Part shown: one piece after another, positions 15,547 through 63,502 of the stretch
Layout: each line of letters starts with the position of its first letter
Position numbering within the stretch: position 1 is the stretch's first letter
DNA from: Raillietiella orientalis
Taxonomy: Eukaryota
Length of the DNA: 64,000 nt
Assembly (NCBI GenBank): GCA_036172245.1
Contig: JAYWIR010000023.1
Coordinates: 186,001 to 250,000, forward strand
Direction of reading: 5' to 3'
The notes under the pieces: model-generated
Databases searched by the model: none
Seen by the model: the letters and a program-made list of their open reading frames with translations, nothing else
Told to the model about the DNA's origin: nothing
Program-made: the position numbers and the translations under genes

Positions 15547-15735
15547 CCAACTGGGGCAGTTGCGGATGGACCTCGAGGGCATCCTGCGAAGGATGACCCT
15601 CCTCCCAGTGGACTGTGATCCCTTACCGGCCCTCCAAACTCTTTTTGTTTTTCTTATCTTTGTTTTTATTTTTTGTTTTCTCCCCCATCCCCTTCCACTG
15701 CCGAGGAGAGTCACACCGGGCTGCATCCCGGTGTG
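15547..15735 (+). mobile_element. Family A LINE 3'-end fragment, inverted relative to its neighbours
   Basis: QLGQLRMDLEGILRRM plus a T-rich 3' UTR closely matching 20310-20495. Confidence 0.88.
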
Positions 15736-15739
15736 ACTC

Positions 15740-17415
15740 TCCTCTGACTGGTGGGCAGCTGCTCGGTCACGGGAAGTAGGAAATTCCCTTCCTCCGTTCC
15801 CACGCTGCCGGCTTCCCCCTCGGCTGCCTGTGCGTCCCCCTCCTTCTTCGTCGGGATGCGCCTCCTTGGATTCTTGGACTTCCGTCCCGTCTTCTTTGGA
15901 GGCGCCTCCGCGGAGGAGGACGCACTTTCGGCATCCGGATCAGCATCACCTTCTTCAGGTGCCTTGACCGCGGTCGGCCTTCTCAAGGTCTTTCGTGCCG
16001 GGATCTCACGGCCGACGTGTTCAGCCGCGAGCTCTTGCGCCGCCTGTTCGAAGGCGGCGTCCTCGATTACGGCGAGCGCGTCGCACGGTTTCCCTTCTGT
16101 TTGCACAGAGGGTTAGGCTTCGGGAATCGCAGCTTCGACGCAAACCAGACGGTGGATATGTCCCCCGGTGGCGGCCTCTAAGGCCCCTACGCGCTCCAAG
16201 GCGACCGAACATTCGCGGAGCAATGAGAGGCGCTGTTTCCTATTTAAAGGATTCGCTGCACCTTCTGCTTTCGGGACCTCAGTTCTTTTAACTTTTTTCG
16301 GCTTCGCCGTCCGCCAGCCTTCGTTCTCACTAGCGTCGTCGGGAGTTTTCTCGATCGGCGTTTGCTGGGAGGGTTCGGGCTCTGGCTTCTGAGTACGCCT
16401 TGCAGTAGCCTCTTTAGACTTCTTTGCTTGCTCCGCGCGTTTCCCCTTGGCTTTTTTCAAAGCAGAGGGAGCCATAGTTTCACGCTTTGGGCACACTTTC
16501 CAGAGGTGGCCCTTCCCTCTGCATAGGAAACACTGGATGTGAGGGCACCGTTTTTTCAGGTGCCCTGTGGCATCACCGTGCCCACAGTACTTGAGTTTGC
16601 CCACGTACCAGACATCGACCGTCTCGTTGCCGATGTCGAGCTTGTGGGGTAGCCCGCCGTTTTCGTTCACAGTTACACGCGCTGCGCCCATGCCACTGAA
16701 CAGTCTTCCATAGGTTTGGAAGACATTGGGCTTGGTCCAGAGCGCGTGTACCGTGCCGTACTTGCTGAGTTCCTCCTGCACGCCGGTTTTCGACATGCGG
16801 AGGGTAACTCCAGTCAGGCGCGCTACTAATGAGCGGTCCTTAGTCACCGGGAAGAGCTTTCCGCCTCCAGCGTAATGGGGGTATTCAACAGGCGCTGAGC
16901 CAGGCTTGCATCCCTGCAAGTCAGCTCCACCCGCTGACCCCCACTAAGCACGGAGAGACCTTCCAGCTCCTCCTCCTTAACGTTAAGCCACTGAAACTCC
17001 CTTTCGAAGTTGCAAGCGGTATTCTCTACAAATATATTGCCTACCTTATAAATCAGGGATGGCTTATAACCTTTTGCCCTGTCGGAGGTTTGTTCGGCAA
17101 TGACTGCAGCGGATGGTGCTTCAGCCACGGCGCTCCAGGTACTCGTCGTGGGCGAAGACGGCTCCGAGGGGACGATTGGGGACGATTGGGCAAAGTCCTT
17201 TTTCAAGAGGACGGTTGCCCTCGCTTCCGTGGGGGCGGTCGCCCCCACCTCCGTGGGTTGGGGAGAGGAACTAGCCTCTCCTCCTCCGATCTCCATCGCG
17301 GTGTCCTCAGGCATTTCTGCCATGGGACACCGACGAGGAGCCACACACTCACACAAAAACAAAGCTATCCAAACTCGCGCAGTCGGAGCGCTAAAAAAAC
17401 ACGTCCGTACGCGAA
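15740..17415 (-). mobile_element. LINE 5' UTR and ORF1 (gag-like, two zinc knuckles), disabled
   Basis: ATG at 17323 (MAEMPED). RRM-like segment ELSKYGTV and knuckles CGHGDATGHLKKRC / CFLCRGKGHLWKVC. Frameshift near 16870 and in-frame stop at 16113. Confidence 0.88.
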
Positions 17416-18879: not shown

Positions 18880-20605
18880 GGTAAACAAGGCGAAGTCGTC
18901 GGTGGTGCCAGTTGGTGCGACGTGGGCAGGACGGCCTGACTGGATCCGCTTGGAGATCCCCACGGCCAGGTACCTGAAGTACCTTGGCGTGCCCTTGGGG
19001 GACTTCTGCCCGTCAGAAGCCTGGTCAGGTCGTCTCCAAAAAGTAGAGTCGGCGATCGGCCCGTTCCTGGAGGGCAAGTTCCTCTTGCCGGAACGGGCCG
19101 CGGTATGGGACGCGTTCGCGGCTCCCATCCTTCGCCCCCTGCTTTTTGTATGCCCCGTTCCCCTCCAGTTGAAGAAGAGGACCAAGGACCTACTCCGCAA
19201 CGCCCTCTGGGGCAAGGGAAGGCCTAGAGTGCCTCTGAAGGACTTGTGCTCCGCGTCGGGACGGCGGTCTTGGCCTCCTGACGCTGGAGCGCTTGGAAAT
19301 CCAGCTGCGATGGCGCACCTTGGCCATCGCGGCGAAGTTGTGGAGCACCCCTTGGTGCGTTCCGGCCCGCCTTCTTGCCAGCCGTGTCTCCAGGATGCAA
19401 GGACTGGCATCTTATCTTCTGTGCTCCGGCCGGAAGATACGAAGATGCGGCCTGCTCCTTGGACGCATGTCCACCTTGGCTAAGGAGAAGGGCTGGATGG
19501 TTTGTAGCCCCGCCAACTCCTCCGCATGGCTAGAGGAGACCGCTAGCATGTGGGCGAAGTTGAATGAGAAGAACCACGAGACGTGGAACTGCCTGCGAGT
19601 CGGCTTCTACGCCCGCCGCACTCTTCGTGAAATTCTTCAATTTCCAGCGAGTTGCACGTGGACGGAAGGGATACCCCTTGCTACGGCGATGCCCTTCCTC
19701 CAAAGGGCGCTTCAGAACAGCCGGAAGCCGAGGTGGCAAGTCTGCTGCCGTATCGCAGGCAGAGAGAAGATGATGAGCGGCTGGACCATGGGAGAGCTGA
19801 CAGACGCTACGACCCCTAGTGTCCAGCCGCGTGGATTAAGAAGATGGGGCGAGCTGCTCGGCATCCGGTCGGATGACCTGAAGTGGTCCCCGGTTCTAAT
19901 TGGATCCAAGATTCTTCCCCTGAAGTGGCAAGAGTCAGCGCTTCTGTGGCTGCATTGGGGTCTACCCTGCAACGCGCGCCGCTTCCACTGGACACGGGGA
20001 AGAGTAAATCCTGCATGTGCCAGGTGTAGGGAGCGGGAGTCCCTCCCTCACCTCCTAGTTGACTGCCCTGCCCTCCGGATTCTTTGGGATCGTCTTGGAA
20101 CGGCCCTCGGGATACCGGATGGTGGCAACCCCAGAGGCGTTTACAGTCTTCTCTTCGTGCGGGACGCCCTCAGTCCAGCCGCAGCCCTGGCAGCACTTTG
20201 CTGCATTCGTGGTATCGTGGCGGCCTGGAGTGATGCCAAAGATGAAGATTGCAACGTGACGGACGTCATCCAGTATGCTGTTCGCTTCCTGCAGAGAGCT
20301 ACAGGATGGCTCCAACTGGGAAGAATGAAGAAGGACCTCGAGGGCATCCTGCAAAGGATGGGCCCTCCCCGAAGTGGAACGTGATCCCTTCCCGGCCCTC
20401 CAAACTCTTTTTGTTTTTTGTTTTTCTGGATTTTATTTTATTTTTGTTTTCTCCCCCATCCCCTTCCACTGCCGAGGAGAGCCACACCGGGCTGCGTCCT
20501 GGCGTCCTGGCAGGTCCGGTGGCCGTTAGTGGGGCCTTGTACCACGTTCTGTAATGACCGAGAAAGAGTTTTTTCATGAACGTCCCGGAGTACCCGGGTG
20601 GTATC
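18880..20605 (+). mobile_element. Family A LINE, 5'-truncated ORF2 C-terminal half and 3' UTR
   Basis: VNKAKSSVVPVG...KYLGVPL, one frameshift near 19270, CARCRERESLPHLLVDC, stop at 20384, then the UTR. Confidence 0.93.
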
Positions 20606-28339: not shown

Positions 28340-29272
28340 ATCGGAGGCCTTGTGGTTAAGTCTTCCGCGCGTGGCACCACGCATCGCGGGATCGAATACA
28401 CCGGCAGAAACTGACGCAACTGCGTCGTTCGGTTCCGAGTTTCTCCTGCAACGGCGCCGGTTGGCCGAGACATTCAGGCGTGGCCCCGGCGGTGGATAAA
28501 GCCGGCGGCCTCCCGATGAAGGCCGGAACAATGGGAGTCGACCTTCGAGTCCTCCCAGGAATAAAGGAGTGGGGAGTTCCCCCTCCGATCGTACAACGGA
28601 GAGCGGACCCCCTTAGCGGGGGTACCCTTCCTGTTTCAACATAGAGCAGGAGCCCTCTCCTAGTTGTTCGATGGAGCTGGGGCCCCCTAAGCGGGGGTTA
28701 CCCTCCTAGTTACACCCTCTTCACAGATTGCAAGAGTGCAAGGAAGCAAGCGAGAGCGATTCCCTGCGGGAAGCTGCAGCGCCCCTTCTGAGTTTCGGAA
28801 GCGTCCCTTCGGGGTTCTCTTCAGAGTGAACAGGAGCGGTTCCCTTGCGGGTTCCCTCCGGAGAAGAAATTCCTACTAGCGGATCCTTTCCGGGTTCCCT
28901 TCGGAGAAGTTGAAATGAAGTTGAAATGGAGAGGACAGCCCCTCCCCATTGGGGTGGGGGGGGAGGTGTCCCTCCGGAGAGAATGAGGAAAGAGATTCCC
29001 TTCGGGGTTCTCCTTCGGAGACAACCAGGGTGGGAGGTGCGATCCCCATCATCCGGAGGATCCCTTCCCAAGCGTGAGAGGAACGGACTCCGAGCCCTTC
29101 CTGGATTCCTAGGGCGGAACCCCCCTTCCGGGGTGTCCTATCCTGAAGAATTACGCCCCCTTGCCTCAGGCGGAGAGGCGTGGAAACAAAACAGTGTGTT
29201 TAAAAGGGCCACGTGCGCCGCGAGGCATGCGACCGGCTCTTGAGGCTCACTTAGCGAACCAAAACAAAGAAA
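28340..29272 (+). mobile_element. tRNA-headed SINE-like repeat, copy 2 (most complete, A-rich tail)
   Basis: Degenerate tRNA head (GGAGGCCTTGTGGTTAAG...GGGATCGAATAC), the shared body, and 3' end GCTCTTGAG...TAGCGAACCAAAACAAAGAAAA matching 43708-43770. Confidence 0.72.
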
Positions 29273-29280
29273 ACCCCGGT

Positions 29281-29962
29281 GTTGCCACCCAGGTACGCCC
29301 GGGGCGTTTATTGAAACTCTACAAAAACGTGGTACGAGGCCCCACTAACGGCCGCACAACACCGGACCTGCCGGGACGCCGGGACGCAGCCCGGCGTGAC
29401 GCTCCTCGGCAGTGGAGGGGAGTTTGGGAGAAAACAAAAAAAATAAAATAAAGAAAAACAAAAGGAGTTTGGAGGGAGGGGAAGGGATCACTATCCACTA
29501 TGAGGAGGGCCCATCCTTCGCAGGATGCCCTCTAGGTCCTTCTGCGTTTGTCCCAGATGGGGCCATCTCGCAGCTCTTCGCATGAAGCTCACAGCGTACG
29601 GGATGACTTCCCTCTCGTTGGCATCCACTCCTTCGTCGCAAATGTCGCTCCAGGCCGCCACGATGCCCCGGATGCAGCAGAGGGCTGCGAGGGCTGCGGC
29701 GGGCTGCAGGGCGTCCCGCACGAAGAGGGGCTGAAGAACGTCTCTGGGCGCGCTGCCCATTGGGAGCCCGAGGGTCGTCCCGAACCGTTCCCACAGGGGT
29801 CGGATGGCAGCACAGTCAACTAGAAGGTGGGGGAGCGATTCCCGCTCCCCACACCTGGCACACTCAGGGCTTACACTTCCTCGCGTCCAGTGGAAGCGGC
29901 GCGCGTTGCAGGGTAAACCCCAGTGCAACAGCAGCAGTGCCGACTCTTGCCACTTTAGCGGG
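29281..29962 (-). mobile_element. Family A LINE 3' end with complete 3' UTR
   Basis: PLKWQESALLLLHWGLPCN, CARCGERESLPHLLVDC, stop at 29491, UTR and terminal hairpin. Confidence 0.92.
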
Positions 29963-30845: not shown

Positions 30846-31486
30846 CTCACCCTCCGGGAATGGCAGACTCTCCGTGAACGATCCCATCTCTCCGCACCTG
30901 GAACGGTTCGCGGAGGCAGCTCCCCCGGAAACCAGGAGCCTGCGCTGGTTGCAAGGGCAATCTCCAGTGTAGAAACAGCAGAACATCCTGCGGTTTCCAA
31001 CGGAACCGGAACGGATGTGTCCGCACACAAGAAAGTGACCACGAGTTCTTAGGGGCGGGGCACTCCGAGCAAATCGCTGAGAATCACCCTGTGGGACACA
31101 GGGAGGTCCCGAGTCCGCCTGAAGGGCTTGCGCGTCCCGAGTCGCGACGGAGTCCTCGGCCTCCTGACTCTGGAGCGCCTAGAGCGGCAACTCCAGTGGA
31201 GGACATTCGCCCTAGTGGCGAAGTTTTGGAGTACGAACTGGTGCGAGCCCGCACGATACCTGGTCAAGCTAGCCACCGGCTACGCGGGACTGCCTTCGTT
31301 CGTGGCGCCGAAGCAGTGTCCCGCTGAGGGCTGGAACTCCAGCGGGTGGCCAAGCTAACCAGGACCAACACCTGAATCTCGTACCGGCCCGCGAACGGCA
31401 GTGCCTGGTTGCGGAAAACCTTTCGCACATGGGTCAAGAACAACGAAGCGAGCCCGGAGATGAGGCAGTGACTGCTGCACTCCTTC

Positions 31487-32157
31487 CAAGGAGCCAGAGA
31501 CATTAGATACTAAGGTTCTGGATGAAATATATCTGTTACTATATGATTTGTAATTCCTTTGTTTCTTTCACTGATGAAGTGTACTATCCATCTATCTGAA
31601 CTCATCTTCTCGTAGTTGGGGTCCATGTTTGCAAAAATTATGACATGTAGACAGCTGAACATCTCTACATGTCCTTGGTATTTTGTGGAGCATAGCATTC
31701 CATTTTTGATGGTCTCTATCCGTAGTTTATGATTTCTTGGGAATCTTTCGTTAAGTCTAAGATAACTATTTTCTGTCCTGAATACATGTATGCAGCATCA
31801 CATTTTCTACAGTTTGTAAGGTAAAGTGCATCATATTTCAGGTATGTGTGCTTGGCCATCGTAGTCTTTCCTGAGTAACCTTGGTAATCCGTGAACCAGT
31901 GTATGTCTCGTTCATTCGGTTCGTTGTTGATTATTTCAAGAAGATTTAGTTGCCACTGTTGAAGGTTTTTTCCAGCCATTGGGTCAGCTCTGTTGTATTT
32001 AGTGAATCTAATAGTGTCGTTTATGAATTGTCTATGTTAATCGTAAATTTCAGTTTTTCTTTCCATAGCCAATGTTCAGTTTTTCCTTCCTGAATCTGAA
32101 ATGTTGTATCTGAAAGATTGTTTGTTAGTATTAGTTTGTTTATTCTTACTTACTTAC
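31487..32157 (-). pseudogene. rep: Endogenous CRESS-DNA virus Rep fragment (intron plus SF3 helicase exon), EVE2
   Basis: IHWFTDYQGYSGKTT (Walker A), IVILDLTK (Walker B), KNGMLCSTKY, HVIIFAN (motif C) and SDRW (Arg finger). AT-rich island with frameshifts and a stop. Coding stop at 31510. Confidence 0.92.
32110..32157 (-). other. 48-nt spliceosomal intron of EVE2 Rep
   Basis: GTAAGT donor, TACTAAC branch site (32124-32130), TTTCAG acceptor. The downstream exon aligns with EVE1 Rep exon 2. Confidence 0.8.
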
Positions 32158-34139
32158 CTTCTGCAACAACCGCCCGCTGAAGGACGTCATCGTGCAGCCC
32201 ACCACGTGTGCGTAGACGCAAAGAACCTCCCTAGCTGCGGTACTGCCTTCCCTCTGGGAGTAGCTGGGCAGTAACCAGTCGGCCAAATGGTCAGTTGCAA
32301 AATCAGTCAGAAGACGACGGAACTAGGTGGTGAGACTACGGTCCAGCACAGAACTACGAAGAGGGGAGTAAGTGTTGTGTATAAGACATGCTAGGGAAAG
32401 GGTTATGGATGGGAGTGGAAGAGAGATGAGAATGGGTCAGGGTCTGTTGAGACCCCAAGTGCCCCGCCGAAAAAACTGTTGCGCTGGAGTGAGCTGCTGG
32501 GAATCCCACAGGGAGACCTCGAGTAGCCCCCAGCGCTGAAGAACAAGACCTACACATGTATGTTTATTTTTTATAAAAAAACATGTCAGCGTGATGACGT
32601 GATAAATCGAGCGGATCATCCCACCAAAGGAGTCCCCTCTCCCGGAAACGAGGACTGACGCCGTCCACCGACACGCTCGTCTTGAAGCCGTCAGGGAGTT
32701 TCTCGACTGCTCAAACGGACAAAAGGTCCGTGCGAGCAACGGTGATTGGGTTCGGTGGGAGGTAGAAGGGACCCAGAAGAACACCGGAGAATTTGGAATC
32801 GGGGAGGAACATCTTCCATACGGGATTTTTGTGCCAAGGGTCCACTTTTTAGTCATCTTTTTTGCTCCATCCGCACCGCCAAAAACTGTTTGCTGCCTTC
32901 GTAGGATCGCGGCGATGCCGCATACTGGACTTCTGCGTGTACGAGGAACGTCGAAACCTCATGTACATTAGAGACCAGGAGAAATTTTTCTTCTACTTCT
33001 TGTTGTTCTTCTTCCTCTTCTACTTCTTTTCGTTCTTTTTCTTCTTCCTTTCTCAAAAAATGAATCTCATTGCTTCGTGGAGCAGATAATTCATGCGAGA
33101 GTCCCACGAGATTGGGAGTCTGGAACCCGACAGACAGTGTCCCTGAAGACACCATCATCTTGGCCAGCAGCTTACCGGTGGCCTGCCCTGGGACACCCGC
33201 CGCACCGCTCCGAGTGTTCGCTAAGGGCTCCAACTGAGCAGAAGGAACCTCCATGCCATCTGGGAGGACGGGGCATCCTCCGGGGTAGGACTCCAGGGCA
33301 GCCTGCAGCTCCGAAAGGACCACCCCGAGAGCTGCACGAGCCCACCATCGTCAGGAAGAGTCGCATCGAGGAAATTGGAAACGCAGGGAAGTGGGAAGCT
33401 CTGGGAGCCCCTACAGCCGCTTGCAGTTTGGCTCTCGCGTGAGATACGAGACCTAGTCGGGCACGTCTGACCACTCACGGAACCCTGGAAAGCGGGTTGG
33501 GTGGTCTCTCCTCCTGTTCCACCCACACCCACTCGGCATCGGCAGCTGCGGCGACCACCGTGGCAGCCGCTGCCCAACAGGAGCTACGTCCAATTGGCTT
33601 CGACCACCGGTCGCGTCGGGTTCGCCTCCCATCCGGACGATTCTCTGCCACGTGCGAGCCGCGGTATGCATCAAAGCAGGAGTGAATGACCACTGTCCTC
33701 CCGCCTGCGACCCCCATCGCCTATAATGTGGAGGGCTATGGGAGAGCCCGATTAGTATGTGAGTTGCAAGGGAGCCTTCGGACGACTACGGGCAGACAAA
33801 ACCTCAACCCCATGCCGGTCACACCCAGTCCTCATCCGACGCACGCTCCTAGGAACCACGATGCCTCCCCATGAAGTCGGCCTATTCTGTTCCCTAGTCA
33901 TTTGTCTATCCATTGGCTCTCTTCCTCCTCCCCCTTCCCTCCTCCCTAGTTCTGTCCCTAGCGCCTTTTCTGTAAGATCCGAGCAACTGTCAGCCTAGGA
34001 TGATAGAAATTCTTTGGAGTTCTCTTGTTTTCGCCGCATTCCTTCGACTTTTTTTGGGGGGAGGGGGTCTCTGATTGCTGAAGAACCGTTCATCTCCTTA
34101 GGAGTGCTCAGGAAGCCCTTTAACACTGTCCACGCCACC

Positions 34140-34860
34140 AGGGATGTGCATTAAGTCTCAAGTTAGGGGGTGTTCCGGTAGGAGACCACCCCATGAATCC
34201 CGAAAGACTCCGGGGAAAGGGGTCTTCTTGCCCAAAGGGACCACGCGTGGTGGCGCCAAGCGTCTCGGGTTCGAATCCCCACGTGGGGGGATCAAAGAGA
34301 CGAATCATAAATGGGGAGGAAATTCCGAAGAGAACCACTTCTTCCTCATCCTATCCGGAGGGACTCCTGCGTTTCTTCTCCGCAAGGACTCCCCGGAAAA
34401 GATCCTCGTCTCCTCCTCTACCGAAGGGAATCCCGAAGGAACTCTCATAAATTTTCTCTGGAGGGTGCTCCCCGAAGGGAGTCGCTTGCTTCTTCACACT
34501 CTGGAGAGGCGACCCCCGAGGGGAGGATCAACCAGATCCTCGGTGCGGGATGGAGGGTCCCCCTCGGAGGGCTGGAGGGGAGGCTCTACTTTCACAGCCA
34601 GAGAGAACCCTGGAGGGCTTTCCAATGTCAAGGAAAGACCCCGGAGGGTCTGCTTCCAATCCCGGAGGCCACTCAGCGGGGACATCCAGATTTCACCAGT
34701 GCTGCCACCTCCGAAGCCAGCCGAGGCCAACCAGCGTCACCCTGCGAGAGGTGCTCTAAACCCACGGCGCACCCGTCGATAGGCTTTGATCCCCCCACGT
34801 GAGGATTTGAACCTGCGACGCTTGGAGCCACCACGCGCGGTCCCTAGCTGTGGATGAAAA
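34140..34860 (-). mobile_element. tRNA-headed SINE-like repeat, copy 3, containing an inverted duplicate of its own head
   Basis: Head at 34784-34844 (GGTTCAAATCC B-box-like), shared body at 34640-34700, inverted head copy at 34237-34297. Confidence 0.7.
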
Positions 34861-36599: not shown

Positions 36600-37560
36600 G
36601 CCCCCGTCCAGGATGAGCTGCGCTAGCATTGCAGTTCCTCGCGCACGCGCGCACCTCGCGAATACCACGCTCAGCACCCGTTTCGACGGCGTCTACCGAG
36701 TGGACCAGTTGGGCTCGAGTGGCCCCGTGCGGTCGATCCCTCAGTGGCGAACACCCCGCGCACCACAGGGCGCGCACACCGAACGGACTCTGGGGTGAGC
36801 TGCTGGGAATCCCACAGGGAGACCTCGAGTAGCCCCCAGCGCTGAAGAACAAGACCCTCACCCTGAATAGTGGCAGGAGTCGGCACTACTGCTGTTGCAC
36901 TGGGGCATACCGTGCAACGCTCTCTATCTCACTGGACCCGGGGTCTGTGGACTCCAACTGCTACAGGTGCGGGAAACGGAAATTCCTCCCCTCCCGCACC
37001 TGCTTGTAGACCGTGTTGCCCTCCAGTCCCTGTGGTTGCGTTTCGCAACGGCCCTTGGTGCACCGACGGACAATCCCAGGGACGTTACGAAGCGCTTCTT
37101 CGTGCGCGATGCTCTTTCGTCTGTCGCATCCCCAGCAGCTCTTTGCTGCCCACGCAGGATTGTGAAGGCCTGGAGCGACGCCATTGGAGGAGGACGGCGC
37201 GATATGAACGCCATCTGCCCTTCGCCCTTTGCTTCCTGCGGACGGCAGCAAGATGGCCCCACCTGGGGCATACTCGGATGGAACTGGGACGGCATCCTGG
37301 AAAGGATGCAGAGGACGCTCTCCAGCAAACAGCGAGCCCTTCCCGTGGCCCCCAGATTTTTCCTTTTTTTATTGATTTTCATTTTTATTTCATTTTTGTT
37401 TGCCCCCTCCCCCTCTCCTGCCGAATAGAACCTCGCCGGCCTGTGTGCTGGTCACTCGGCAGGTTCCGCGCATTTTCGGACGACTTAGGGCCGATGGCCC
37501 TGAACACGTATGTTTATTATTTTTTATAATAAACGTCCCGGCGTTACCGGGTGTTAACCA
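36600..37560 (+). mobile_element. Family A LINE 3' end with 3' UTR
   Basis: WGELLGIPQGDLE*, WQESALLLLHWGIPCN, LPHLLVD, and a UTR ending AATAAACGTCCCGGCGTTACCGGGTG. Confidence 0.88.
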
Positions 37561-37929
37561 AAGGTGTCGACTGCCTCCCGCCTCCGCACTCACGAGCTGA
37601 CGCAGCGACACGAAGTCATGTTCCGACAGAAATGCCACTAATGCCAACAGGTATCCGTGCCTTTTCGTCCTTTGGAGTAGTCATATCCGGCGGCGAAAAG
37701 CAGGATGAGGCGTTCAGAGACATGCCAGGCACACATCTGTGGCGACCGCGCGGGAGTGGGGATGCTGACCCCTTGCAGCCAACTGCCAGCCTGAGGATGG
37801 AGCGCACGGGAAGGTTCCAACGTTTTTTTCGCCGCCGCCGGACGGATCTTCGGAACCGCATCTGAAGCTCGATTCGCTCCGGAGCCGATATTCTTGGTCC
37901 AGCATCCCGACGAGGAGGTCCTCTGAATG

Positions 37930-38397
37930 GGCCTCATTCCAAACCTTCATTCCAAACTCCTCGCCCATATTTCCTATAGTTAAGCCTAAAGACAACGGCT
38001 CTATCTTCACAGCACAGCCTTTCACTCGCACATATCTATAATACTTCGCCAAACCATCCAAATTACATATTTTCAACAAGTCTGACACAGCAATCTCTGA
38101 TTCTAAATAACAATACATCCAGGAACAATTCACGTGATCTCCATCTGCAGTTCGCAAAGAAGAGTAATGCTCAGCACCTTCCGCTACATCACGAGCTACC
38201 ACACGTGTTGTACGGCCTATACGGTAACGAGGAGACCTGAACCGTCTCCACTTACGACGACGATTATTCCAAAGACGCCGACGCTTAAACGTACTATATC
38301 CAACCCCGCGCCTAGACAAACGACGACGCTTCACGCCATACGATGATCCTCCACGCTTTCTCTTCCGAGAACGAGAAGCGCGAGGTGCCACTGCCAT
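37930..38397 (-). pseudogene. cap: Endogenous CRESS-DNA virus capsid protein, C-terminally truncated (EVE1)
   Basis: Very Arg-rich N-terminus (RSRKRKR...RRRKWRRFRSPRYR), then YYRYVRVKGCAVKIEP, like the Y.YYRI..V.V.F.P strand of CRESS capsids. Divergent from Rep. The ORF formally runs on to 37714 in non-viral sequence. Confidence 0.88.
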
Positions 38398-38472
38398 TCC
38401 ACTGCTTGACAGCGTACTGGCGACCTAAGTCAACCCCCCTCCCTTTTTAAGTGTGGCTGGTGGGACACGCCC

Positions 38473-38505
38473 ACCCGACCTCATCAGCCTTCCACGAGGT
38501 CGGGT
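38473..38505. repeat. Second intergenic hairpin (10-bp stem, 13-nt loop)
   Basis: ACCCGACCTC (38473-38482) pairs with GAGGTCGGGT (38496-38505). Confidence 0.85.
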
Positions 38506-38644
38506 TACGCCACGCACTTCCCACGTGGACAGCAACAGCCTGTTCCGCGTTCCAAAGTCTTCCACGATTGCGGACAAAAACCAGACACTAAAAATATCAC
38601 TTACAACATATCGGAATTTCCCAAGGTTTTGCGTTGTCAGCGAA

Positions 38645-38679
38645 ATGCAATCTGGGTAATACCATTTACCAGATTGCAT
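38645..38679 (-). promoter_or_regulatory. Rolling-circle replication origin stem-loop with nonamer TGGTATTAC
   Basis: Perfect 11-bp stem ATGCAATCTGG/CCAGATTGCAT. The 13-nt loop reads TAAATGGTATTAC on the minus strand (nonamer 38656-38664). Confidence 0.92.
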
Positions 38680-38698
38680 CTTCTGCGCAGTTACGCAC

Positions 38699-38705
38699 TA
38701 TAAAT
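38699..38705 (+). promoter_or_regulatory. TATA box for Rep
   Basis: TATAAAT about 65 nt upstream of ACCATG (38768). Confidence 0.6.
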
Positions 38706-38767
38706 ACCAACACACAGACAACCAAAGCCAAGTCTTACCTACAGTGAATTACCTACAAGCAGAGACC

Positions 38768-39106
38768 ATGCCGTACGCACTGTTTTTCAATCGGTGCTTC
38801 ACACTGTGTAACTTCTCCGAAGAAGACTTGAAAGACATCAAGAACTGGTGCCGTGCCAACTGCGGCTTCGCCTGCATTGGACAAGAAACAGCAAAAACAG
38901 GGACACCACATCTCCGAGGATACTTCCAACTTAAAGAGCCACGCACCATGCCAGGACTCAAAAGAAAACCATTCCATGAAACTCACTTAGAAAAACCAAG
39001 AGGATCAGCACAGAGCAACCTACGGTACTGCACAAAGGAGGATAAACAAGCATGGACATACGGCAAAATCCACGAAGCTAACGAACCCACCGACTACCAA
39101 GACCTA
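38768..39106 (+). CDS. rep: CRESS-DNA virus Rep exon 1 (HUH endonuclease), EVE1
   Basis: Motif I CFTLCN, motif II TPHLRGY, motif III YCTKED; no stops. Confidence 0.93.
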
Positions 39107-39154
39107 GTAAGCCATAAACCTTTAACAACAACATTAGAAATCCTCTTCCACTAG
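39107..39154 (+). other. 48-nt phase-0 spliceosomal intron in EVE1 Rep
   Basis: GTAAGC donor, branch-like CTTTAAC, pyrimidine run, CTAG acceptor. The acceptor TAG is the only in-frame stop in Rep. Confidence 0.82.
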
Positions 39155-39613
39155 ATACTCCAACTCATCGAGGATGGTGCAGACGAACACTTCATCCTCA
39201 AAAATCACACAAAGTTCTACAGCAAGAATATTAACTTCGTAAAAGAATGCTTCAGACTTACCAGAAGCAGAGCACACCCCAAACCCTTAACTAATCTCCA
39301 ACTAAGAAGCTGGCAACTCGACATACTTAAACTCATACGACATAAACCAGACAACCGCAAGATCCACTGGTTTTATGACCCTATCGGAGGAATAGGCAAA
39401 ACAACCATGGCTAAATTCCTTTACTTAAAAAAGGGTGCCATATATATGCATTCGTGCAAAAAAGCAGACGCCGCCCACATATACAACGGCGAGAGGATCA
39501 TCGTTGTCGACCTCACAAGGGACAATCAAGAACTGGTGCGATACGGCTTCATAGAAACCATGAAAAACGGCATCATGTTCGACAGCAAATACCAAGGATC
39601 AATCAAATACAGT
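39155..39613 (+). CDS. rep: CRESS-DNA virus Rep exon 2 (SF3 helicase), truncated before motif C
   Basis: IHWFYDPIGGIGKTT (Walker A), IIVVDLTR (Walker B), YGFIETMKNGIMFDSKY. The frame stays open into GC-rich flank up to 39928. Confidence 0.92.
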
Positions 39614-40559
39614 CCCGCAGGGCTTTCCTCGGGAAGCCAGCGGTCCTTCTACGCGCCGCGTAGGGAGAGGGAGAAACGAAAAGCGGAAGTCAGAGGAGGG
39701 GCAGCAAAAGCGTTCTACGCCGCGGACCGCTCCGGTAAGAATCTGCTACAGACGAACGTGCTGAGGTCATCCCGCCTCCCGAAAACCGCCGCAGGATCAC
39801 CCTTTGCCGCGCAGAAGTCTTCCATAGGCCGGCATAGGAAGTTCAGAGCATTGGCCAATGGGAACCCTCAGACGAGTCCAAATCGGTGGCATCTCAAGCA
39901 AAACTACCCTTTGCCGGCACCGACGTAATCTGATGACACCGAGGTGTTTCTTTCCCAAAGGAACGTAGGCAAACAAAGTAGGGAGTGAACCATTTGCTTC
40001 TAGGAGTTCAAGGGGGAATAAACCATCGACCCACAGGTTGGCAACAGGAAGGACAAAGAGGGTTGTAAGGGTCACATTATGGATGGCAAACAAACAAAAA
40101 AAAAAGGAAGAAACAAATAAGCGAGAGAGGGAGAAGGATCAACGGAGATGCCGGCAGCATCCTCCTCAGCTTCCGGTTTCCCATTTCTGATCGTTGAAGA
40201 GGCGGGGCGTACGGCCTTCGATTCTTGCTGACGTACTTCCTGCGTGTACCAGGAAATCCTTCCCACGCAATCGAGCCGGCGAGACATCCGGGCTGCAGGC
40301 GAGAGCCCTCCACTAGGGAAGCAGCGCCGCGGCGACTTCTTGAGGGTGTCCTCCGGACTCCGGGGGTCGCACAGCAGACGTCGGACAGGAGATCCGTCGA
40401 CCATTCCCTTCTGTTACTCCTGCTACAGAGCACGAGATCTCCCACTATCCCACCATGCCCCCTGTCGTTTCTCTCTCATAGGGAGGACAGCACTACGGCT
40501 AGGGAGCTGGCGGAGTCCAAACCACATCTTCTGGTCCTGTCGCACTTCCTCAACAAACG

Positions 40560-43770: not shown

Positions 43771-46169
43771 TGAAAGGAAAATAGCGAAGACAGAAAAAGA
43801 ACCCAAAAGGATTTATGTATCTGCACTGGGGAGTTCCCAGTGCCATCGGCTTCGGCACTTCGTTTCCAAGGGATTTGCGTCCCCAAAGCGTTTAGCGTGT
43901 GGGACGATCGAGTCGTTCCCAAGCCTGTTGTCGGACTCCAAGAACTGTGGAGGAGGTCGTCTTCAGCGCTCCTGCTCCCGGAAACACCTGGACGAGGTTA
44001 GGTTTCCGCCACAAAAAGTAGGCGGTCGCGAATTTTGAGTTTCCCGCCGGACCCTTTATTCAGGATCTCCGCTCTGGGAGATCATAAAGGATCCATCCTC
44101 CGCCACCGCGAACACCTTGGAACCCATGTAGTTGAACGGGCGTTTAGGGAAACAGAGAGTGAGCGTGGCGCGTCTGTGGAGACTCCACGCGCCTCTCGCG
44201 CTAAGTATGAGGGTCACGAGATCCGCCCTATCTTCAGCCACGAGGTCGCAATGCTCGGCCCAAATCATTTACAGCCACCTGGAAGCCAACGTGACTTACC
44301 TTGTAGAGCAGAGCAGGATTGAAACCCGGGGATACGTAAGCCATCATCTCTACGTGTTCGGGCGGAGCTCTTTCGTTGGCTACTACCGCCGCCATGTCAC
44401 TCCACAACCTGGAAGCAACTGGAGAGATGGCCATTGCGACTCGTTTGCGGGCAGCAACAACGGGCTGAGATCGGAAGCATTCTCGACACCGTTCTCCTTG
44501 AGACCAGCACAAAATGCAGGCGATCCCCCCTCTCGACTTCCTCCAAATGGGGGCACTTCGCTGCAGTCCCCACGGAGGCCGCTGCCACGCGGGTGGATTC
44601 CTGTCACTGCGCATGCAACTCGAAAACGTGACCAGCAGCAGTCACGGTAGAGAGGATGCAAAGAATCGTCTCTGCCACGGCTTCTTGGGGGAGTTCACCT
44701 CGCGCGGAAGGCCAGAATGGCCAGAATCGCCGCAGCAAGTCCTCGGCCATGCCCCCGAGTGCAGCAGCGCTGGAGTCGGCTTTCGGCACGGCTCTTGGAG
44801 TGACAGCGCAGTCGAAGAAACAGTTGCGAGAAAGACTCGCTTGTTTCCGCACTTGGAACAGTTCGGCGATGAGGCACTCCCGGAAACGGGGTGTCGGCGC
44901 TGGAAAAGAGCACTACCAGCTCCTGTCTCCACTTCAAAGGGAGCACCGAGGAAGAATGGTAAGTAAGCGTGACAGGAGAAGTGTCGAAAAGCATCCGAAA
45001 CGAAGGATCTGACACCCCAAGTCTCCCTTTCTTTTGTTATTTATCTATTGTCCCTTTCCCTTCCTCTCCGGACATCTTGTGCGACAGAGCTGTGTGTCGG
45101 TGATCCGTCCGGTGAAATTCTTCCTGTTTGCCCAGTTCCCAGCATGTTTGTTAATTTTTACAGTAATCCCCCCCGCCGCGGCCGGGTGAACACGCACGTG
45201 CCATTCTATGGTGAGTTGGCGTTCCGGCAGAGCTGTGAACCGCGCAGCAACACTCAAAGCACACGGTGCAAGCGAGTCCTACCGCCATTCTTCGAGTGGC
45301 AAAACCTCTCTGGCGCCCCATTTGCACGGTTTCGTGGAAGTACCACAGAACATCGCTGCTCGCGCTCCACTGCTGTAAGCGCATCGCTGCTCGCTTTGCA
45401 TGACCATTGGTTACTCGCCACGTAGAGACTGCTGATGTGAAACCTCCCAATTTCAGAGAGTCATGGCGATCTCGGGGGAGACAGGCAGGCAGAAGCAGTG
45501 GCGCCTTCCAAGAGCAATGCTCTTCCCGACCGGTGCAGCAGTGATTCGAAGGAGGCGGAATGAGAAGGAGGCAAGCAGTTTTCCACGCCCTAAGAGAGCT
45601 GCTGCTCCTCCAGGAAGGTAGGCAGGCACAGATGCCATGTGCCGCCTCTTCGTAGGCTCGTTCGTAGGCTCAGCTTCGTTCGTAGGCTTGTCAGCTGGCA
45701 ATCCACGATCGGAAGAACTAGGAAAAGCTCCTTCTCGTCGGGACACCCTCCCAACTGCGCAACTGTTTCACCGAGACTCCGGACTCTTGAAGATCCACAG
45801 AGCCGACTATCGACTCGAGGAGATTCCCATGGGAGTCACGACACCTCGGTTGAGATCACCCTGTTTGGAGGCCTTTACAAAGGTGTAGAAAAGGGGCACG
45901 CGCACCTCACGACTCAGTGAGGCCATATCTTTGACCAGATCTCAGTGAAGTAGCAGACACGGTTGTGCTCTGCAAAAAGGGAGAAGAGACAGGACAACGA
46001 GCTATCTCGAGGGGCACCGTAGACCAAGAAAGAAGGGCAGCTCTATCACTTCCGCTCCTGTGAACATACTGCCCAATGTTCATAGGAGCTCCCTTGTCTG
46101 CGTGTCTTTTCTTTCTTCCTCCCTTCCCCTTTTTAACTTTTGAAGCCGTGAGGCAGCGCCCATCCAGCC

Positions 46170-49100
46170 GGCATGCACATAGAGTCAACCAGCGAGGGAC
46201 AAAGGAATACCATGGATGTAGCGATCTCGATAAGGAACGAGCTCGCTCACACCATCCTGGAAACCTTCTGCTCCATGACGGGAGGAATCGTCGGCGCACG
46301 AATTTCCTGGTCCGCAAATGTTCACTGGTTCTTGGTGAACGTATGCGGACTGCACCACCAAAAGCATCAGTGCGCGGAGGCGCTCCACGGAACACTCCGG
46401 CAAAATGTCGCACCGAAGGAGATTGTGATCATCGTGGGGGATTTCAACATCCTGAATGAAATCATTCATTCCCGAGACGCCAGAGGCAGGGCAGCGTATC
46501 GGCGGCTGTCCGACAAGTTCAGGCTGCTGTGGCTAACAGCCAGCCACAAGCCTATCGACCACATCCTCTACAGCTCCGATATAAGGAACCGTATCCACGG
46601 GTTTCGTGACACGCCCACCTTGCTGTCCGATCACCCATTGGTGAGGTTTTCCCTGAGGACTGAAAACCCTCGGCGAAAGAAGGCCACAAGGGCGGCACTC
46701 ATCAGCATGCCTGCCTGGTTCGAAACGCTACCCTGCCATCAAGAAGTTACAGAGACGACCAGCATCCGCAGAGTCACTGACTGGGATAGCCTGAAACACT
46801 GAGTTCACCTGTTCTGCAACATGCAACTCGAAAACAACTCGAAACATGCAGTTCAAGATGCAGTTCGGTGACAAGAGACCGAGGCAGGAAGCGTACCGGG
46901 AGCTGCACATCCAAAATCGCTCCCTCTCGAAGTACTGGGAACAATGCGAAGGTCGGTACGTCTTCCAAAATGTAAAAGGGGAAATCGACGTGCTGGAGAA
47001 GAAGAATCTGGCAACAGACATCTTCTGGATCCAATACGATGGCCACAGTCGGCACACGTCGGAGGACATCGCGGACGCCTTCCAGAGGCATTACGTGAAG
47101 CACTTCCGATGAAGATATCTGTGCCCGACTAATCAAGGAATTTTTTTGCGACACCTGGAAAGACGAACGAGTGAAAACCATCGGAATATGCTTGAAGAGG
47201 AAATCTCCGAAGAAGAAGTGAAAGCTGCGTTTGTGGAACTTCGGCGTTTGTGGCAGCGAGCCCTGATAGTGTCCACATCTCTCACTATCAGCGGTACTTG
47301 CATGCCTACCGACGTTTGTTTCACTAGCTAACGCTCTGCATCCGACAAGAAGGACGACTACCTGCATCCTTCTACGAGGAGGATGAGATTGTTGTCGAAA
47401 GGAGGTAACCTGACTAAGGTTACCCAATAAAGGCCAACCACAATCCTGAACAGCGATGCCAAGTGGTTAGCAAAGATCTGGGTTAACCGCTTAGGCAAGG
47501 TCATGCCGAAGCTCATCTCTCCCGTCCAGACATGCGCAGTGTCCGGACGCCACATGTCGGACAATGTCAAGTGTGCTCAGGCTACCATTGGTCTCAGACG
47601 ATATATCGGTGAGAACTTAGTACTGTGTTTCACTGACATGTAGAAAGCTTTCAAGACGGTGGACCATGGGATGCTGTTGAAGATTCTAGGAAGACTGGGC
47701 CTCCCGGAACAATTCAACAACTTCGTAAAGATGATATTGGAAGAGCAACACTTTCGGATAAAGATAAATGGGGAAGAGACGGCAGCCATCCGGATGGAAC
47801 GAGTCCTCCAAGGCGATGCTCTTAGTCCGATGCTGTTTGTCAATGCTGTTTGTCATGTCCTCTCATCATTCATAGAGAGAAGTGGGCACCTCCGCGGAAT
47901 CACTGTCGACAATCAACGGCTCACCCATCTGGCTTACACGGATGATCTTCTCAAAGGGGAGAGAGGTCAACGTACGTTTCTGGATGTACTGGAGCTTATT
48001 GAAGAAGGATTGGGCTTAAAAATCAACGCCCAGAAAAGCCAACTTTTGCCCGTCGGAATCCTGGATCTCTCCATACTCATAGAGGAAGGATTCCGAACGA
48101 TGGACAATGCGAAGTACCTGGGTGTCCACATTGGCGACAATTCATCGTCCCAACTATTGTGGAAGGAAATCCTGGGGAAAACAGCGAAAGAAGGAGCGAA
48201 GTATACCCGTTTGGACTTTAACATGAAGAAGAGGGCCAATCTTTGGAACGGAGTACTCCTTCCGAAGATACTCTTTGGAGAGGCCTTCTACAGAATGTTC
48301 AAAGATACCAAGAGGGAGGTAGAAAAGCTTCAAAGGAAAACTCTATGGGGAAGATACCAACCAAGAGTCCTCCTCAAACCACTGTGTCATCCTAAGGAGG
48401 AAGGCAGTACCGGGATGAAGTCGCTTGCACACGCTGTGGACACCTTGGACGTGCGACAACTCCTGGACATGTTGGAAAACTGGGAAGACTGGCCGTATGC
48501 AGCGCATAGGGCTTACTCGTTGTTGATAAATAACTCGAGAGGACTGATGACTGCGCTGCTCGGCAGATAGGTGAATGGGTCATCATCGACCCAATCTGGA
48601 GACGAAAGCAACAGCTGGTACACAAGCACCAGCTGAAGATCATACCAAGGAGCAAGGAACTCTGGCAGGAGGAATCCATCCTGGCGATCCCGTGGATGCT
48701 CCCGGTACCTCCGGATACGAGGAGCTGGATCCACCAGCGGTCCAAGGTTACTTTGCAAGCAGCTCAAGTATGGAGACGACGAGAGTACTTTCACTACTCC
48801 CGAATATCCCGATAAATTGATAGGATAGCTGGAAGATTCACCCACAGAACCCGCGAAGTGTGGAAAAAACACAACAACTTCGTGTGGTCCAGGGTAACAA
48901 AGAAAAAACTGTGCCAACTAATAGTTGAAGAGGACAAAGACACCAGTGCCCTCCAAGAAGCCGCCGATAGCCACGGAAGTGCTGGGATAAACCTGTTGGC
49001 TATTGGAACGACGCTCTGGAGGAGGAACTTGTCACCGGACACACAGGATAACCTCCTGATGTTTTATCATGGAGGAATCCTGTGCGGGACAACCATGAAG

Positions 49101-51936: not shown

Positions 51937-53312
51937 TTAACTGTCATATTTTTTCCTTTTGTTTTCTACAAAATACACATCGACGCATTCGTCCTGCTCC
52001 ATGAATAAGCTACTTGGGGTATCCTCTGGTGATAACTCCTCTCCATCAAAATGGAAACGCAACTGATCCATTGGAACATGTTGATGTTCCGCATAAAGTG
52101 CAAACAAGATATGGAATGGATCATCCCTTTTGATATGCATCGTTACAGTGTCCTTTCTTTTGCTTGTCTGCATCTGCAGCCTGATCATGTTGGTATCATG
52201 GATCTCATCGTGCAATGATGAAGCACTGCAGACATTCCCTGATGACTGAGCAACATATGCTTCTACAAAAGCTGTGTAGCTCCTGTAGATAGATAGAGGT
52301 CTCACCAATAACATCTGTAACAGACAGCTGGAGGTGATAGGGAGTATCTCTGGGATACAAGCATCTATCTCTCACACTCAGGTTTATGTGAGATGGATCC
52401 ACCTGCATCAATTCAGCAAGATGCTGCTGCAGCACAGCCATGCCTTGAAACTGTTAATATGATATAATGATTACAGTGAGTAACTACTCTTACTTGTTTC
52501 ATGGGAAACCTGATGATTTTTCCCTGAAACTTGACTTTCAGCAAAATCATCTTATTATTTACTGGACTCTGCGCAGGATCACTGTCATCCTGAAACACAA
52601 CTGTAATCTCTCAATGAAACAGAAAACGTAAACTAAACACACAAGCACTTGCTCCTCTTGCATGTATTCTATGGCCTTCTTCTGCAGCTGCAAACTTCTC
52701 AAAATAGAGCTGACTTCTTCATTGAACGTCACTGTATTCGTACTTTTTTTGTTCTCAAAATCAACTGCTGGCATGTCATCATCACTAATAACAATATGAT
52801 TTAGAAAAAGTACATGATCTTGGGCTTTAAATACGTGCTCATGATCATGATTACACCCAGTATTTAACAGTTTCATTATTCATAGTATAGTCAGATGACT
52901 AAATGACCACAATTTCAAGACCAGTATTTATTGCACAATCAAAAGGAGCAAAATTACACTAAAATATAAAATGAAAATTGGTATGAAAAAACGGCCATCA
53001 AATGTGTCAGCACATTCATCTATATAAAATCTCAGATGCTTAAGACACTATGGATCTATAACTTGGGCAAAAATGCAACAAAAGGTCTATAACCTAGATT
53101 TTTAATATAAACATCAACATGAAAATCCCCATGGATTTTGAAATTTCAACGTACAATAAAATCTAAAACTTACTTTTCGGAATCACTGCTCAATGAGATC
53201 ACACAAATGTCACTCTTGGCCTTTGTTTTCGCATTTTTTTCTTTGTTGCAGATTTGAGTTTCATGTGCATCCTTGGGTTGGCTATTAGCAATTTCATCAT
53301 AGCATGGGATGT
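51937..53312 (-). CDS. Rad60/Esc2/NIP45 (NFATC2IP)-like protein with two SUMO-like domains, 3' exons
   Basis: Phase-compatible exons ~53312-53174, 52784-52649, 52589-52494, 52450-52306 and 52262-51937. SLD1 ends ...PRDTPYHLQLSVTDVIE; SLD2 has LRFHFDGEELSPEDTPSSLFMEQDECVDV. SIM-like VISLSSDSE upstream. 5' exons not resolved. Minus-strand AATAAA at 51541-51546. Confidence 0.82.

Positions 53313-62551: not shown

Positions 62552-63502
<951 letters not shown>

Follow-up and report, generated by a model that had tools for sequence, protein, structure and literature searches.

A viral Rep fragment beginning at a splice donor within a LINE of Raillietiella orientalis: captured viral DNA or a copied splicing intermediate?

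An AT-rich fragment of a circovirus/cyclovirus-like Rep gene (hereafter referred to as EVE2) interrupts the ORF2 of a LINE in a stretch of 64,000 nucleotides of Raillietiella orientalis DNA (the window, which carries all coordinates below). The viral identity of the fragment, its intron, the clean target duplication around it and its decay by frameshifts are directly apparent, and its end coincides with the 5' splice site of the intron. We infer, tentatively and as the slightly favoured reading, that EVE2 is a fragment of viral DNA caught at a staggered break and that its boundary reached the donor by chance. It is possible, though rather doubtful, that a DNA virus, or an older fossil of such a virus that was being expressed, was instead endogenised via RNA, a released and debranched intron-exon 2 intermediate having been copied by a LINE enzyme. 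For fossils of small DNA viruses, entry into the genome as DNA is the usual assumption. Were a half-spliced RNA the template here, host retrotransposon enzymes would fix DNA-virus sequences by way of RNA, reverse transcription in germline cells would have access to discarded splicing intermediates, EVE2 would be the first such intermediate known from a genomic copy, and splice-donor breakpoints would serve as a signature for sorting viral fossils by the way they entered. The locus is of use on the ordinary reading too, its two fossils documenting a spliced Rep gene.

EVE2 occupies positions 31487-32156, with the Rep sense on the minus strand and a GC content of 0.355 against 0.62 and 0.557 in its flanks. 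An earlier note, made from the letters of the window, had described a viral insert of about 670 bp within LINE ORF2 that ends about 23 nt after the Rep stop codon without poly(A); its length is exactly 670 bp, exactly 23 nt follow the stop, and an A-run is absent. In the Rep sense it comprises a 48-nt intron, a frameshifted exon 2, the stop codon and these further nucleotides, reading (G)TAAGTAAGTAAG...TACTAAC...TCTTTCAG/ATAC... and then the helicase-region exon 2 in three different frames (32149-32021, 32036-31716 and 31797-31510). The coordinates of the individual features are given in Table 1.

Table 1. Features of the two viral fossils and of the interrupted LINE, in window coordinates
Feature	Position	Strand	Basis or content
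LINE ORF2 fragment, degenerate, left of insertion	31053..31481	+	tblastx/blastn to 19203-19580 and 14976-14588
CCTTC target duplication, left copy	31482..31486	.	frame-continuity test
EVE2 tail past Rep stop	31487..31509	-	TATCTAATGTCTCTGGCTCCTTG
EVE2 Rep exon 2 (linker, SF3 helicase, C-terminus, stop TAG 31512-31510)	31510..32109	-	ORFs, tblastn
EVE2 viral intron, 48 nt	32110..32157	-	GTAAGTAAGTAAG, then TACTAAC (32130-32124), then TCTTTCAG
CCTTC target duplication, right copy	32157..32161	.	frame-continuity test
LINE ORF2 resuming in register, CNNRPLKDVIVQPTTCA...	32162..32556	+	tblastx 32452-32538 to 19812-19898
EVE1 putative Cap ORF, arginine-rich N-terminus	37714..38397	-	no Pfam match
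EVE1 origin-like stem-loop TGCAATCTGG / GTAATACCATTTA / CCAGATTGCA	38646..38678	+	DNA fold
EVE1 Rep exon 1, endonuclease domain	38768..39106	+	Pfam Viral_Rep
EVE1 intron, 48 nt, GTAAGC...CACTAG	39107..39154	+	donor reference; exons collinear on unspliced Reps
EVE1 Rep exon 2, truncated inside helicase domain	39155..39616	+	phmmer

The Rep identity of exon 2 is established by tblastn, in which 153 Rep-type queries gave 290 matches on EVE2, and by comparison with exon 2 of the second fossil of the window, EVE1 (44% identity over 118 aa, E-value 9.5e-32). Relative to EVE1, a 4-nt gap is present near 31720; the Walker A motif reads GYSGKTT in EVE2 and GGIGKTT in EVE1, the two being aligned with the invariant G, G and K. 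The two EVE2 pieces matched none of the Pfam families and, as a fragment without exon 1, EVE2 lacks the HUH endonuclease domain. It is a non-functional relic of a circovirus/cyclovirus-like virus with circular ssDNA, decayed by frameshifts.

The interrupted LINE belongs to a family whose intact copies carry RVT_1 and zf-RVT matches. The CCTTC direct repeats reported earlier are present on both sides of the insert and are not extendable (GCACT/CCTTC/CAAGG on the left, ACTTA/CCTTC/TGCAA on the right). With one CCTTC kept, a single ungapped match (102/103 aa) to two intact copies of ORF2 spanned the junction in blastx (E-values 4.9e-15 and 3.4e-14); when neither or both of the repeats were kept, it broke into two frames. 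Since the frame of the LINE is unbroken only with exactly one CCTTC, the repeat is a true target duplication, and the claim that ORF2 resumes in register stands, apart from the position of the LRVGF/YARR comparison, which lies at 19593-19619 and not at 19293. Nucleotide-level scores of the empty-site variants (77/72/67 against one LINE copy, 65/63/66 against the other) barely discriminate between them, and the decision comes from the protein frames. The duplication measures 5 bp, or 4 bp plus a shared G, with no filler and no loss of target, and the sequence demonstrably common to target and virus at the junctions amounts to at most 1 nt (G). The insert is absent from all other LINE copies of the window, and a word-indexed protein search returned no longer proteins matching the LINE ORF2.

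Only two Rep loci occur in the window. EVE1, at a distance of 5.5 kb from EVE2, is a near-complete viral fossil with an ambisense organisation, in which a Cap-like ORF lies on the minus strand and Rep on the plus strand; a stem-loop origin is seen in EVE1 only. Exon 1 of its Rep matched Pfam Viral_Rep (PF02407; E-value 3.9e-13, 49.9 bits, cut-off 26) and exon 2 gave 4422 phmmer matches at E<=1e-3, while the Pfam RNA_helicase family, at 18.4 bits, stayed below its cut-off of 21.5 on exon 2. The stem-loop consists of a 10-bp stem and the loop GTAATACCATTTA, which we take to resemble the nonanucleotide consensus, and folds at -13.8 kcal/mol (z -5.3; 0/200 shuffles as good). With Cap and an intron-containing Rep on opposite strands and a stem-loop origin, EVE1 cannot derive from one mRNA, and so documents DNA-level entry of its virus group into this genome. 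A second copy of the EVE1 flanks was not found in the window.

EVE1 also serves as the reference for the splice donor of EVE2. The two introns match in length and position, and the donor of EVE2 is fixed because the EVE1 intron is homologous and the EVE1 exons are collinear with unspliced Reps. On this basis the earlier statement that the viral-sense 5' end coincides to within 1 nt with the GTAAGT donor is upheld, and exon 1 is indeed absent from the insert and its surroundings. As the first G of the intron (32157) doubles as the last base of the target duplication, EVE2 starts at intron +1 or +2. Its 5' end reads (GTAA)3G, that is, three overlapping GTAAG, a motif found at positions 1, 5 and 9 only of the 671-nt insert and nowhere else in either Rep; the match to the donor is therefore not trivial through motif frequency. 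The third GTAAG as the donor, preceded by 8 nt of exon 1, was rejected, since it places TAA in two of the three phases, including phase 0 of EVE1. In EVE2, another TTTCAG 14 nt further downstream offers an alternative acceptor.

If viral DNA was captured, the source would be a sub-genomic molecule of it, either single-stranded or of the replicative form, with one break in the (GTAA)3 tract and the other where the 3' ends of Rep and Cap meet. The captured piece would comprise the 48-nt intron, exon 2 of Rep and, of the 3' junction between Cap and Rep, about the last eight codons' worth; end-joining of this 670-bp piece, in antisense, into a break of LINE ORF2 with a 4-5-nt stagger, and fill-in of the stagger, would yield the CCTTC duplication. 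On the plus strand, 31487-31509 can be read as 8 sense codons, with a TAA after them at 31511-31513; this may be where a convergent Cap ORF ends. Capture of DNA is favoured by the retention of the intron in both fossils of the window, a classical sign of a DNA-level rather than an mRNA-level copy, and by EVE1, which documents DNA-level entry of the same virus group. Double-strand-break capture, as of mitochondrial DNA inserts or of the AAV type, leaves arbitrary ends without terminal repeats or poly(A), and EVE2 resembles such captured DNA in being a foreign fragment with all of these properties. Such capture, however, usually brings small deletions, filler or microhomology; a clean 5-bp duplication of the kind seen here is not usual for it but is possible through a filled-in staggered break. 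Integration of non-retroviral sequences is described as proceeding by non-homologous recombination or via LINEs (PMC2987831).

The match of the EVE2 end with the splice donor becomes a coincidence if DNA was captured, and an improbable one. A random end is estimated to fall within +/-1 nt of the donor of a genome of ~1.8-2 kb in ~0.2% of cases, and in ~2-3% when two ends and about five other notable landmarks are allowed for; the restriction of GTAAG to the three overlapping positions likewise speaks against chance. The clean duplication without target loss or filler also weighs against DNA capture, clean target duplications being typical less of end-joining capture than of insertion by endonuclease and reverse transcriptase, as does the insertion site in LINE-rich DNA.

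These features are the ones that a reverse-transcribed first-step splicing intermediate would account for, the explanation proposed in the earlier note, to which we give limited credence. The intron with exon 2 would have been copied by a LINE enzyme at a nicked target; exon 1 would have been cut off, the template debranched or read through at the branch, and the cDNA would end at intron +1. Either an infecting virus or an older EVE that was expressed could have supplied the RNA. An RNA cleaved at the 5' splice site would explain exactly the observed 5' end at intron +1/+2, with exon 1 missing at the site and nearby; otherwise, nothing marks an RNA origin. The clean duplication in LINE-rich DNA fits target-primed reverse transcription. 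Three published observations are counted in favour of such a template: discarded lariat intermediates are reported to reach the cytoplasm (bioRxiv 10.1101/2022.10.13.511998), L1 retroposes intron-derived box H/ACA snoRNAs (PMC1802619), and L1 chimeras are described in which the exon side stops precisely at a splice donor (bioRxiv 10.1101/2025.02.02.635956). The last resemble EVE2 in having a junction exactly at the 5' splice site, 6/17 ending at donors; in those chimeras, however, it is the exon side that is fused to L1, read as trans-splicing, whereas EVE2 carries the intron side, no sense fusion to the LINE and no poly(A). A published precedent for an intron-side retrocopy did not turn up in a literature search. 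Against this origin it also counts that EVE2 is a single case, that splicing intermediates are rare, spliceosome-bound species and that EVE1 shows a DNA route to exist here.

The 3' end and the branch point bear on both explanations. The 3' end reads ...CTCCTTG, with neither AATAAA nor ATTAAA nearby, the sole AATAAA of EVE2 being at intron position 14; by eye, it bears no likeness to the 3' stem-loop of the resident LINE. The lack of a tail and of a signal favours captured DNA and, together with the lack of a natural RNA 3' end, weighs against the splicing intermediate. The resident LINE family has a conserved AATAAACGYCCCGG...CCGGGTG stem-loop as its 3' end, with no poly(A), and LINEs with such ends rarely mobilise foreign RNAs, another point for DNA capture; nevertheless, as the resident LINE itself has no poly(A) tail, the missing tail of EVE2 is not disqualifying for a splicing intermediate. 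The branch box TACTAAC is intact and carries no scar, although branch points pause reverse transcriptases (PMC5399748). This may speak for DNA capture and against the splicing intermediate, but an intact box would fit prior debranching just as well as a DNA origin.

An RNA could also have been copied without having entered splicing. EVE2 would then be a 5'-truncated retrocopy of unspliced Rep pre-mRNA, its cDNA end joined to the target by microhomology, which we regard as improbable. The common 5' splice site form AAG/G would match the target GAAGG; the duplication ends in AAGG, directly abutting TAAGT, and at least the G is common to target and virus. Truncated L1 copies are well known for microhomology at their 5' junctions, and Rep genes with introns can have plentiful unspliced transcripts, as in mastreviruses. 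Exon 1 of EVE1, however, ends in CTA and not in AAG, the microhomology being only assumed; the missing poly(A) counts against a retrocopy of this kind as well, and a stop at the exact donor base is a priori as improbable as a random DNA break.

What probability remains is shared by routes beyond DNA capture, a splicing intermediate and a truncated transcript. It is quite unlikely that EVE2 arose within a chimeric LINE, through a reverse transcriptase that switched from LINE RNA to viral ssDNA or antisense RNA at CCTTC and then back. The viral template would then be of the same polarity and the CCTTC repeat a pseudo-duplication. The Cap-sense strand of EVE2 and the sense strand of the LINE do share their polarity, and CCTTC and GAAGG are available inside the insert (positions 193 and 69, respectively), but CCTTC would be required in the virus at both switch points, the donor coincidence is left without a reason, and none of the other LINE copies in the window carries the insert. 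A misjoining of free viral reads into the host contig, by assembly artefact or contamination, has nothing specific in its favour and is scarcely credible: both junctions fall inside a single LINE ORF, a duplication is present and the ORF continues in frame, and the viral gene has decayed into three frames. An insert of the TIR-transposon or integrase type was rejected, the ends being 5'-CA...TA-3' without inverted termini (by eye). Rep-mediated nicking at the boundary was also rejected: the only origin-like motif of EVE2, TAGTATTAG on the plus strand, which agrees in 8 of 9 positions with what we take to be the origin consensus, is intronic and lies ~25 nt from the end (by eye).

Among known elements, EVE2 resembles the CVe and CRESS-DNA Rep elements (Katzourakis & Gifford 2010, PMC2987831; Dennis et al. 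2019, PMC6372831) as a decayed, germline-fixed Rep fragment; it differs from CVe in keeping an intron, in starting at its first base and in its 5-bp target duplication. LINE association is reported for carnivore CVe as amplification after integration (LINE-1), and excerpts of these two accounts give no splice-site breakpoint. With LINE-mediated insertions of the bornavirus/filovirus type and processed pseudogenes (PMC2987831), EVE2 shares a discrete insert, a short duplication and a LINE-rich genome; those viral elements carry poly(A), whereas EVE2 has none, retains its intron and comes from a DNA virus. Of the features that mark processed pseudogenes, the target duplication is present in EVE2, and intron removal and a poly(A) or LINE 3' recognition sequence are not.

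The Reps of cycloviruses and other CRESS-DNA viruses (PMC6186406, PMC3684831) have, like the two fossils, a short spliceosomal intron between the endonuclease and helicase parts. The nearest proteins or contigs are only ~35-47% identical, and the best library matches are unnamed proteins. EVE1 and EVE2 together document a spliced Rep with a 48-nt intron from a virus lineage without a close sequenced relative. Single-protein scans of IMG/VR, and of metagenome contigs with EVE1 exon 2 and with the EVE2 ORF, yielded no relatives, and a word-indexed protein search yielded no longer proteins matching EVE1 exon 2. From the 115 relatives that a profile scan of IMG/VR gave, 80 were kept, none of them exceeding 45% identity and none near enough to supply the end of exon 1 or the sequence past the 3' end. 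The best library match (P0001) contains two helicase units with a period of ~218 aa, and an IMG/VR scan with it returned only a 44% relative (L001). A frame-changing intron in the Rep linker is also present in one (L067) of the 80 IMG/VR relatives examined, located a few codons upstream of the intron position of EVE1 and EVE2.

The viral fragment EVE2, a piece of the gene for the replication protein (Rep) lodged in ORF2 of a host non-LTR retrotransposon (LINE), is set off from its surroundings by base composition, the GC content being 0.62 in the left flank and 0.557 in the right flank against 0.355 inside. On deletion of the insert together with one CCTTC, BLASTX gave one ungapped match of 102 or 103 amino acids running through the junction to each of the two intact ORF2 copies, at 57.4 bits (E 4.9e-15) and 55.1 bits (E 3.4e-14); when both CCTTC were kept, or neither, the match was split between two frames (against one of the copies, 39.3 + 26.9 bits). 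ORF2 is thus interrupted and resumes in frame, as had been claimed in the earlier note; the codons behind its LRVGF/YARR comparison are also real, but lie at 19593-19619 and not at 19293. Nucleotide scoring of the empty-site variants (77/72/67 and 65/63/66 against two LINE copies) hardly discriminates between them and the evidence for a target duplication is therefore the reading frame and the exact 5/5 repeat. The clean duplication, with no filler and no target loss, and the LINE-rich setting argue for entry through RNA, as in the route proposed in the earlier note, by which an RNA cleaved at the 5' splice site (intron plus exon 2) was reverse-transcribed to give EVE2; we regard this route as possible, if less likely than not.

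Coordinates of the features discussed (positions in the window, except for L067, which is numbered on its own contig)
Feature	Position	Strand	Description
LINE ORF2 flanking EVE2	both sides	plus	degenerate non-LTR retrotransposon
Better-preserved LINE ORF2 copies	19239-20384 and 13928-15622		weak RVT_1, zf-RVT matches
CCTTC repeats	31482-31486 and 32157-32161		exact 5/5; not extendable either way
EVE2 insert	31487-32156	minus = Rep sense	670 bp, AT-rich
EVE2 Rep frame pieces	32149-32021, 32036-31716, 31797-31510	minus	3 pieces in 3 frames
EVE2 Rep stop TAG	31512-31510	minus	then exactly 23 nt, without A-run
EVE1	37714-39616		near-complete circovirus/cyclovirus-like genome; cut off inside helicase
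EVE1 Cap-like ORF	37714-38397	minus	arginine-rich
EVE1 origin-like stem-loop	38646-38678		10-bp stem, 13-nt loop; DNA fold z -5.3
EVE1 Rep exon 1	38768-39106	plus	Pfam Viral_Rep, E 3.9e-13; Rep starts 38768
EVE1 intron	39107-39154	plus	GTAAGC...CACTAG, 48 nt, in-frame stop; frame resumes 39155
L067 intron	~1448-1525		GTATGT...TTGTTAG; Rep linker, just before KRNDL motif

TBLASTN searches of the window with 153 Rep-type queries (150 library proteins and three pieces of EVE1, a second viral fossil) gave 290 matches on the EVE2 block, 155 on the EVE1 locus at 38.7-39.6 kb and no third credible Rep locus in the window; the other matches at E<=0.01 were one of 33 amino acids at 24.7 kb (E 0.008) and that of a Cap piece onto its own locus (37500 bin). 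Pfam returned no family for two EVE2 pieces alone, so that the evidence for its identity is the TBLASTN matches, the Rep helicase alignment A1, in which the Walker A glycines and lysine are invariant (EVE2 included), and an identity of 44% with EVE1 exon 2 across 118 amino acids (E 9.5e-32). The minus strand begins (G)TAAGTAAGTAAGAATAAAC...CTAATACTAAC...CAATCTTTCAG/ATAC and goes on as the second half of Rep from a small ssDNA virus with a circular genome. EVE2 adds a new, distant and anatomically unusual member to the Rep-derived viral fossils already known.

The EVE1 stem-loop was not equalled by the fold of any of 200 shuffles. Since EVE1 holds genes on both strands and an origin, it must have entered the genome as DNA, which favours a similar history for EVE2, namely capture of viral DNA with a boundary that fell at the splice donor by chance. 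The proteins of the two fossils are only ~44-55% identical, which indicates two different viruses of one lineage, fixed 5.5 kb apart. A profile-free protein search of 1.84 billion representatives with EVE1 exon 2 as the query gave 4422 matches at E<=1e-3, of which 1357 reached E<=1e-10 and P0001 alone (36-48% identical by TBLASTN) lay below 1e-30. This predicted protein of 354 amino acids appears to comprise two Rep helicase-half units, in tandem and in frame, without the endonuclease domain; the repeat period is ~218 amino acids (~654 nt), the unit being near EVE2 in size and content. In IMG/VR, 115 relatives were found and 80 contigs retained, none of them above 45% identity; a frame-changing split of Rep was seen in one of the 80 (the CRESS contig L067), by a crude test that in-frame introns would escape. 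Compared with the EVE1 intron position, the L067 intron lies upstream by a few codons. Introns have been described in the Rep genes of cycloviruses and of further CRESS viruses associated with arthropods (PMC6186406).

EVE1 settles the first base of EVE2 as the predicted splice donor. Its exons are collinear with unspliced library Rep proteins: on P0010, the end of exon 1 corresponds to residue 140 and residue 8 of exon 2 to 148, hence residue 1 to 141; on P0012, residue 110 of exon 1 corresponds to 104 and residue 1 of exon 2 to 107. The EVE2 intron (GTAAGT...TTTCAG) has the same length of 48 nt, and both second exons begin with ATAC. In the Rep strand of EVE2, GTAAG is confined to positions 1, 5 and 9 of 671, and in the EVE1 Rep to the donor. 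Three caveats concern the donor and the acceptor. The donor G doubles as the final base of the CCTTC duplication, so that the insert starts at intron +1 or +2 (or, in other terms, a 4-bp duplication adjoins a viral G). The 5' end is a (GTAA)3 tract and its third unit was considered as the ancestral donor; the preceding 8 nt contain TAA in two phases out of three, that of EVE1 among them, and thus do not belong to a coding exon 1. With a second TTTCAG, 14 nt downstream, as the acceptor, the intron would be 62 nt long and the following IQEGKTEH would be in phase. Exon 1 sequence enters the insert under none of them. The structural points of the earlier note are all confirmed, including the 5' end within 1 nt of the donor G, the absence of exon 1 and the ~23 nt without poly(A) after the Rep stop, and an artefact is considered exceedingly remote.

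A splice-site-cut RNA would account exactly for this 5' end. The chance that one end comes to lie within a base of the donor is ~0.2% by the author's own estimate (viral genome of ~1.8-2 kb assumed), or ~2-3% allowing two ends and ~5 other landmarks that would have been as striking (start, stop, acceptor, origin nick, poly(A) site); the coincidence is one event, singled out by a reader seeking coincidences. Joining of a truncated unspliced transcript through microhomology (target ...AAGG, splice site AAG/G) is improbable; EVE1 exon 1 ends in CTA, so that the assumed match is putative. Retention of the intron and the 3' end without poly(A), AATAAA or ATTAAA (the sole AATAAA being at intron position 14) favour chance capture of DNA, to which we tentatively give the most weight; the unscarred branch box fits it too, and would fit a debranched RNA equally well. 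The plus-strand sequence at 32124-32134, TAGTATTAG, is the reverse complement of the intron's branch box region. It agrees with the circovirus origin nonanucleotide at 8/9 bases; it lies ~25 nt in from the end of the insert, and the likeness is probably a coincidence.

The resident LINE likewise favours DNA capture: its 3' ends carry no tail and close with the conserved hairpin AATAAACGYCCCGG...CCGGGTG, and LINEs of this type rarely mobilise foreign RNA. A chimera formed by template switching, the LINE enzyme having moved onto viral DNA in the same polarity, is more improbable still than the microhomology joining; a small weight is left to other routes. In the better-preserved ORF2 copies, the Pfam matches stay below cut-off (RVT_1 29.2 bits, cut-off 29.6; zf-RVT 22 and 19.2 bits, cut-off 27.5). 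A short hairpin, AATAAACGYCCCGGCGTWACCGGGTG..., without poly(A), is common to the LINE 3' ends at ~20480-20560, 29230-29330 (rc), 37500-37560 and 17050-17150 (rc), and inter-copy homology ends immediately after it. A 67-bp segment of the EVE2-bearing copy (32484-32550) is 98.5% identical to 36790-36856, other copies being ~70% alike; the copy holding the latter is 5'-truncated and ends just before EVE1. Beyond 32556 the EVE2-bearing copy jumps to LINE 3' UTR-like sequence, which suggests an internal deletion.

Given the literature, the steps of the splicing-intermediate route are conceivable. Reverse transcriptase is reported to pause at branch points (PMC5399748), lariat intermediates that have been discarded to be exported (bioRxiv 10.1101/2022.10.13.511998) and L1 to retropose intron-derived snoRNAs (PMC1802619); of 17 L1 chimeras, 6 terminate precisely at splice donors, on the exon side (bioRxiv 10.1101/2025.02.02.635956). 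The top matches of searches in open-access PMC and bioRxiv included no intron-side retrocopy and no viral fossil whose start is at a donor.

Elsewhere in the window, a second, different LINE family at 46152-48570 encodes an AP-endonuclease domain (Exo_endo_phos, E 2.5e-7) and RVT_1 (E 1.9e-12), and a 62-bp inverted repeat (34236-34297 / 34845-34784) is 90% identical, with arms ~490 bp apart. The GC content falls sharply to ~30% at 52000-58500, the rest of the window being at 50-62%, and an open frame at 62552-63502 holds four head-to-tail ubiquitin repeats (polyubiquitin gene).
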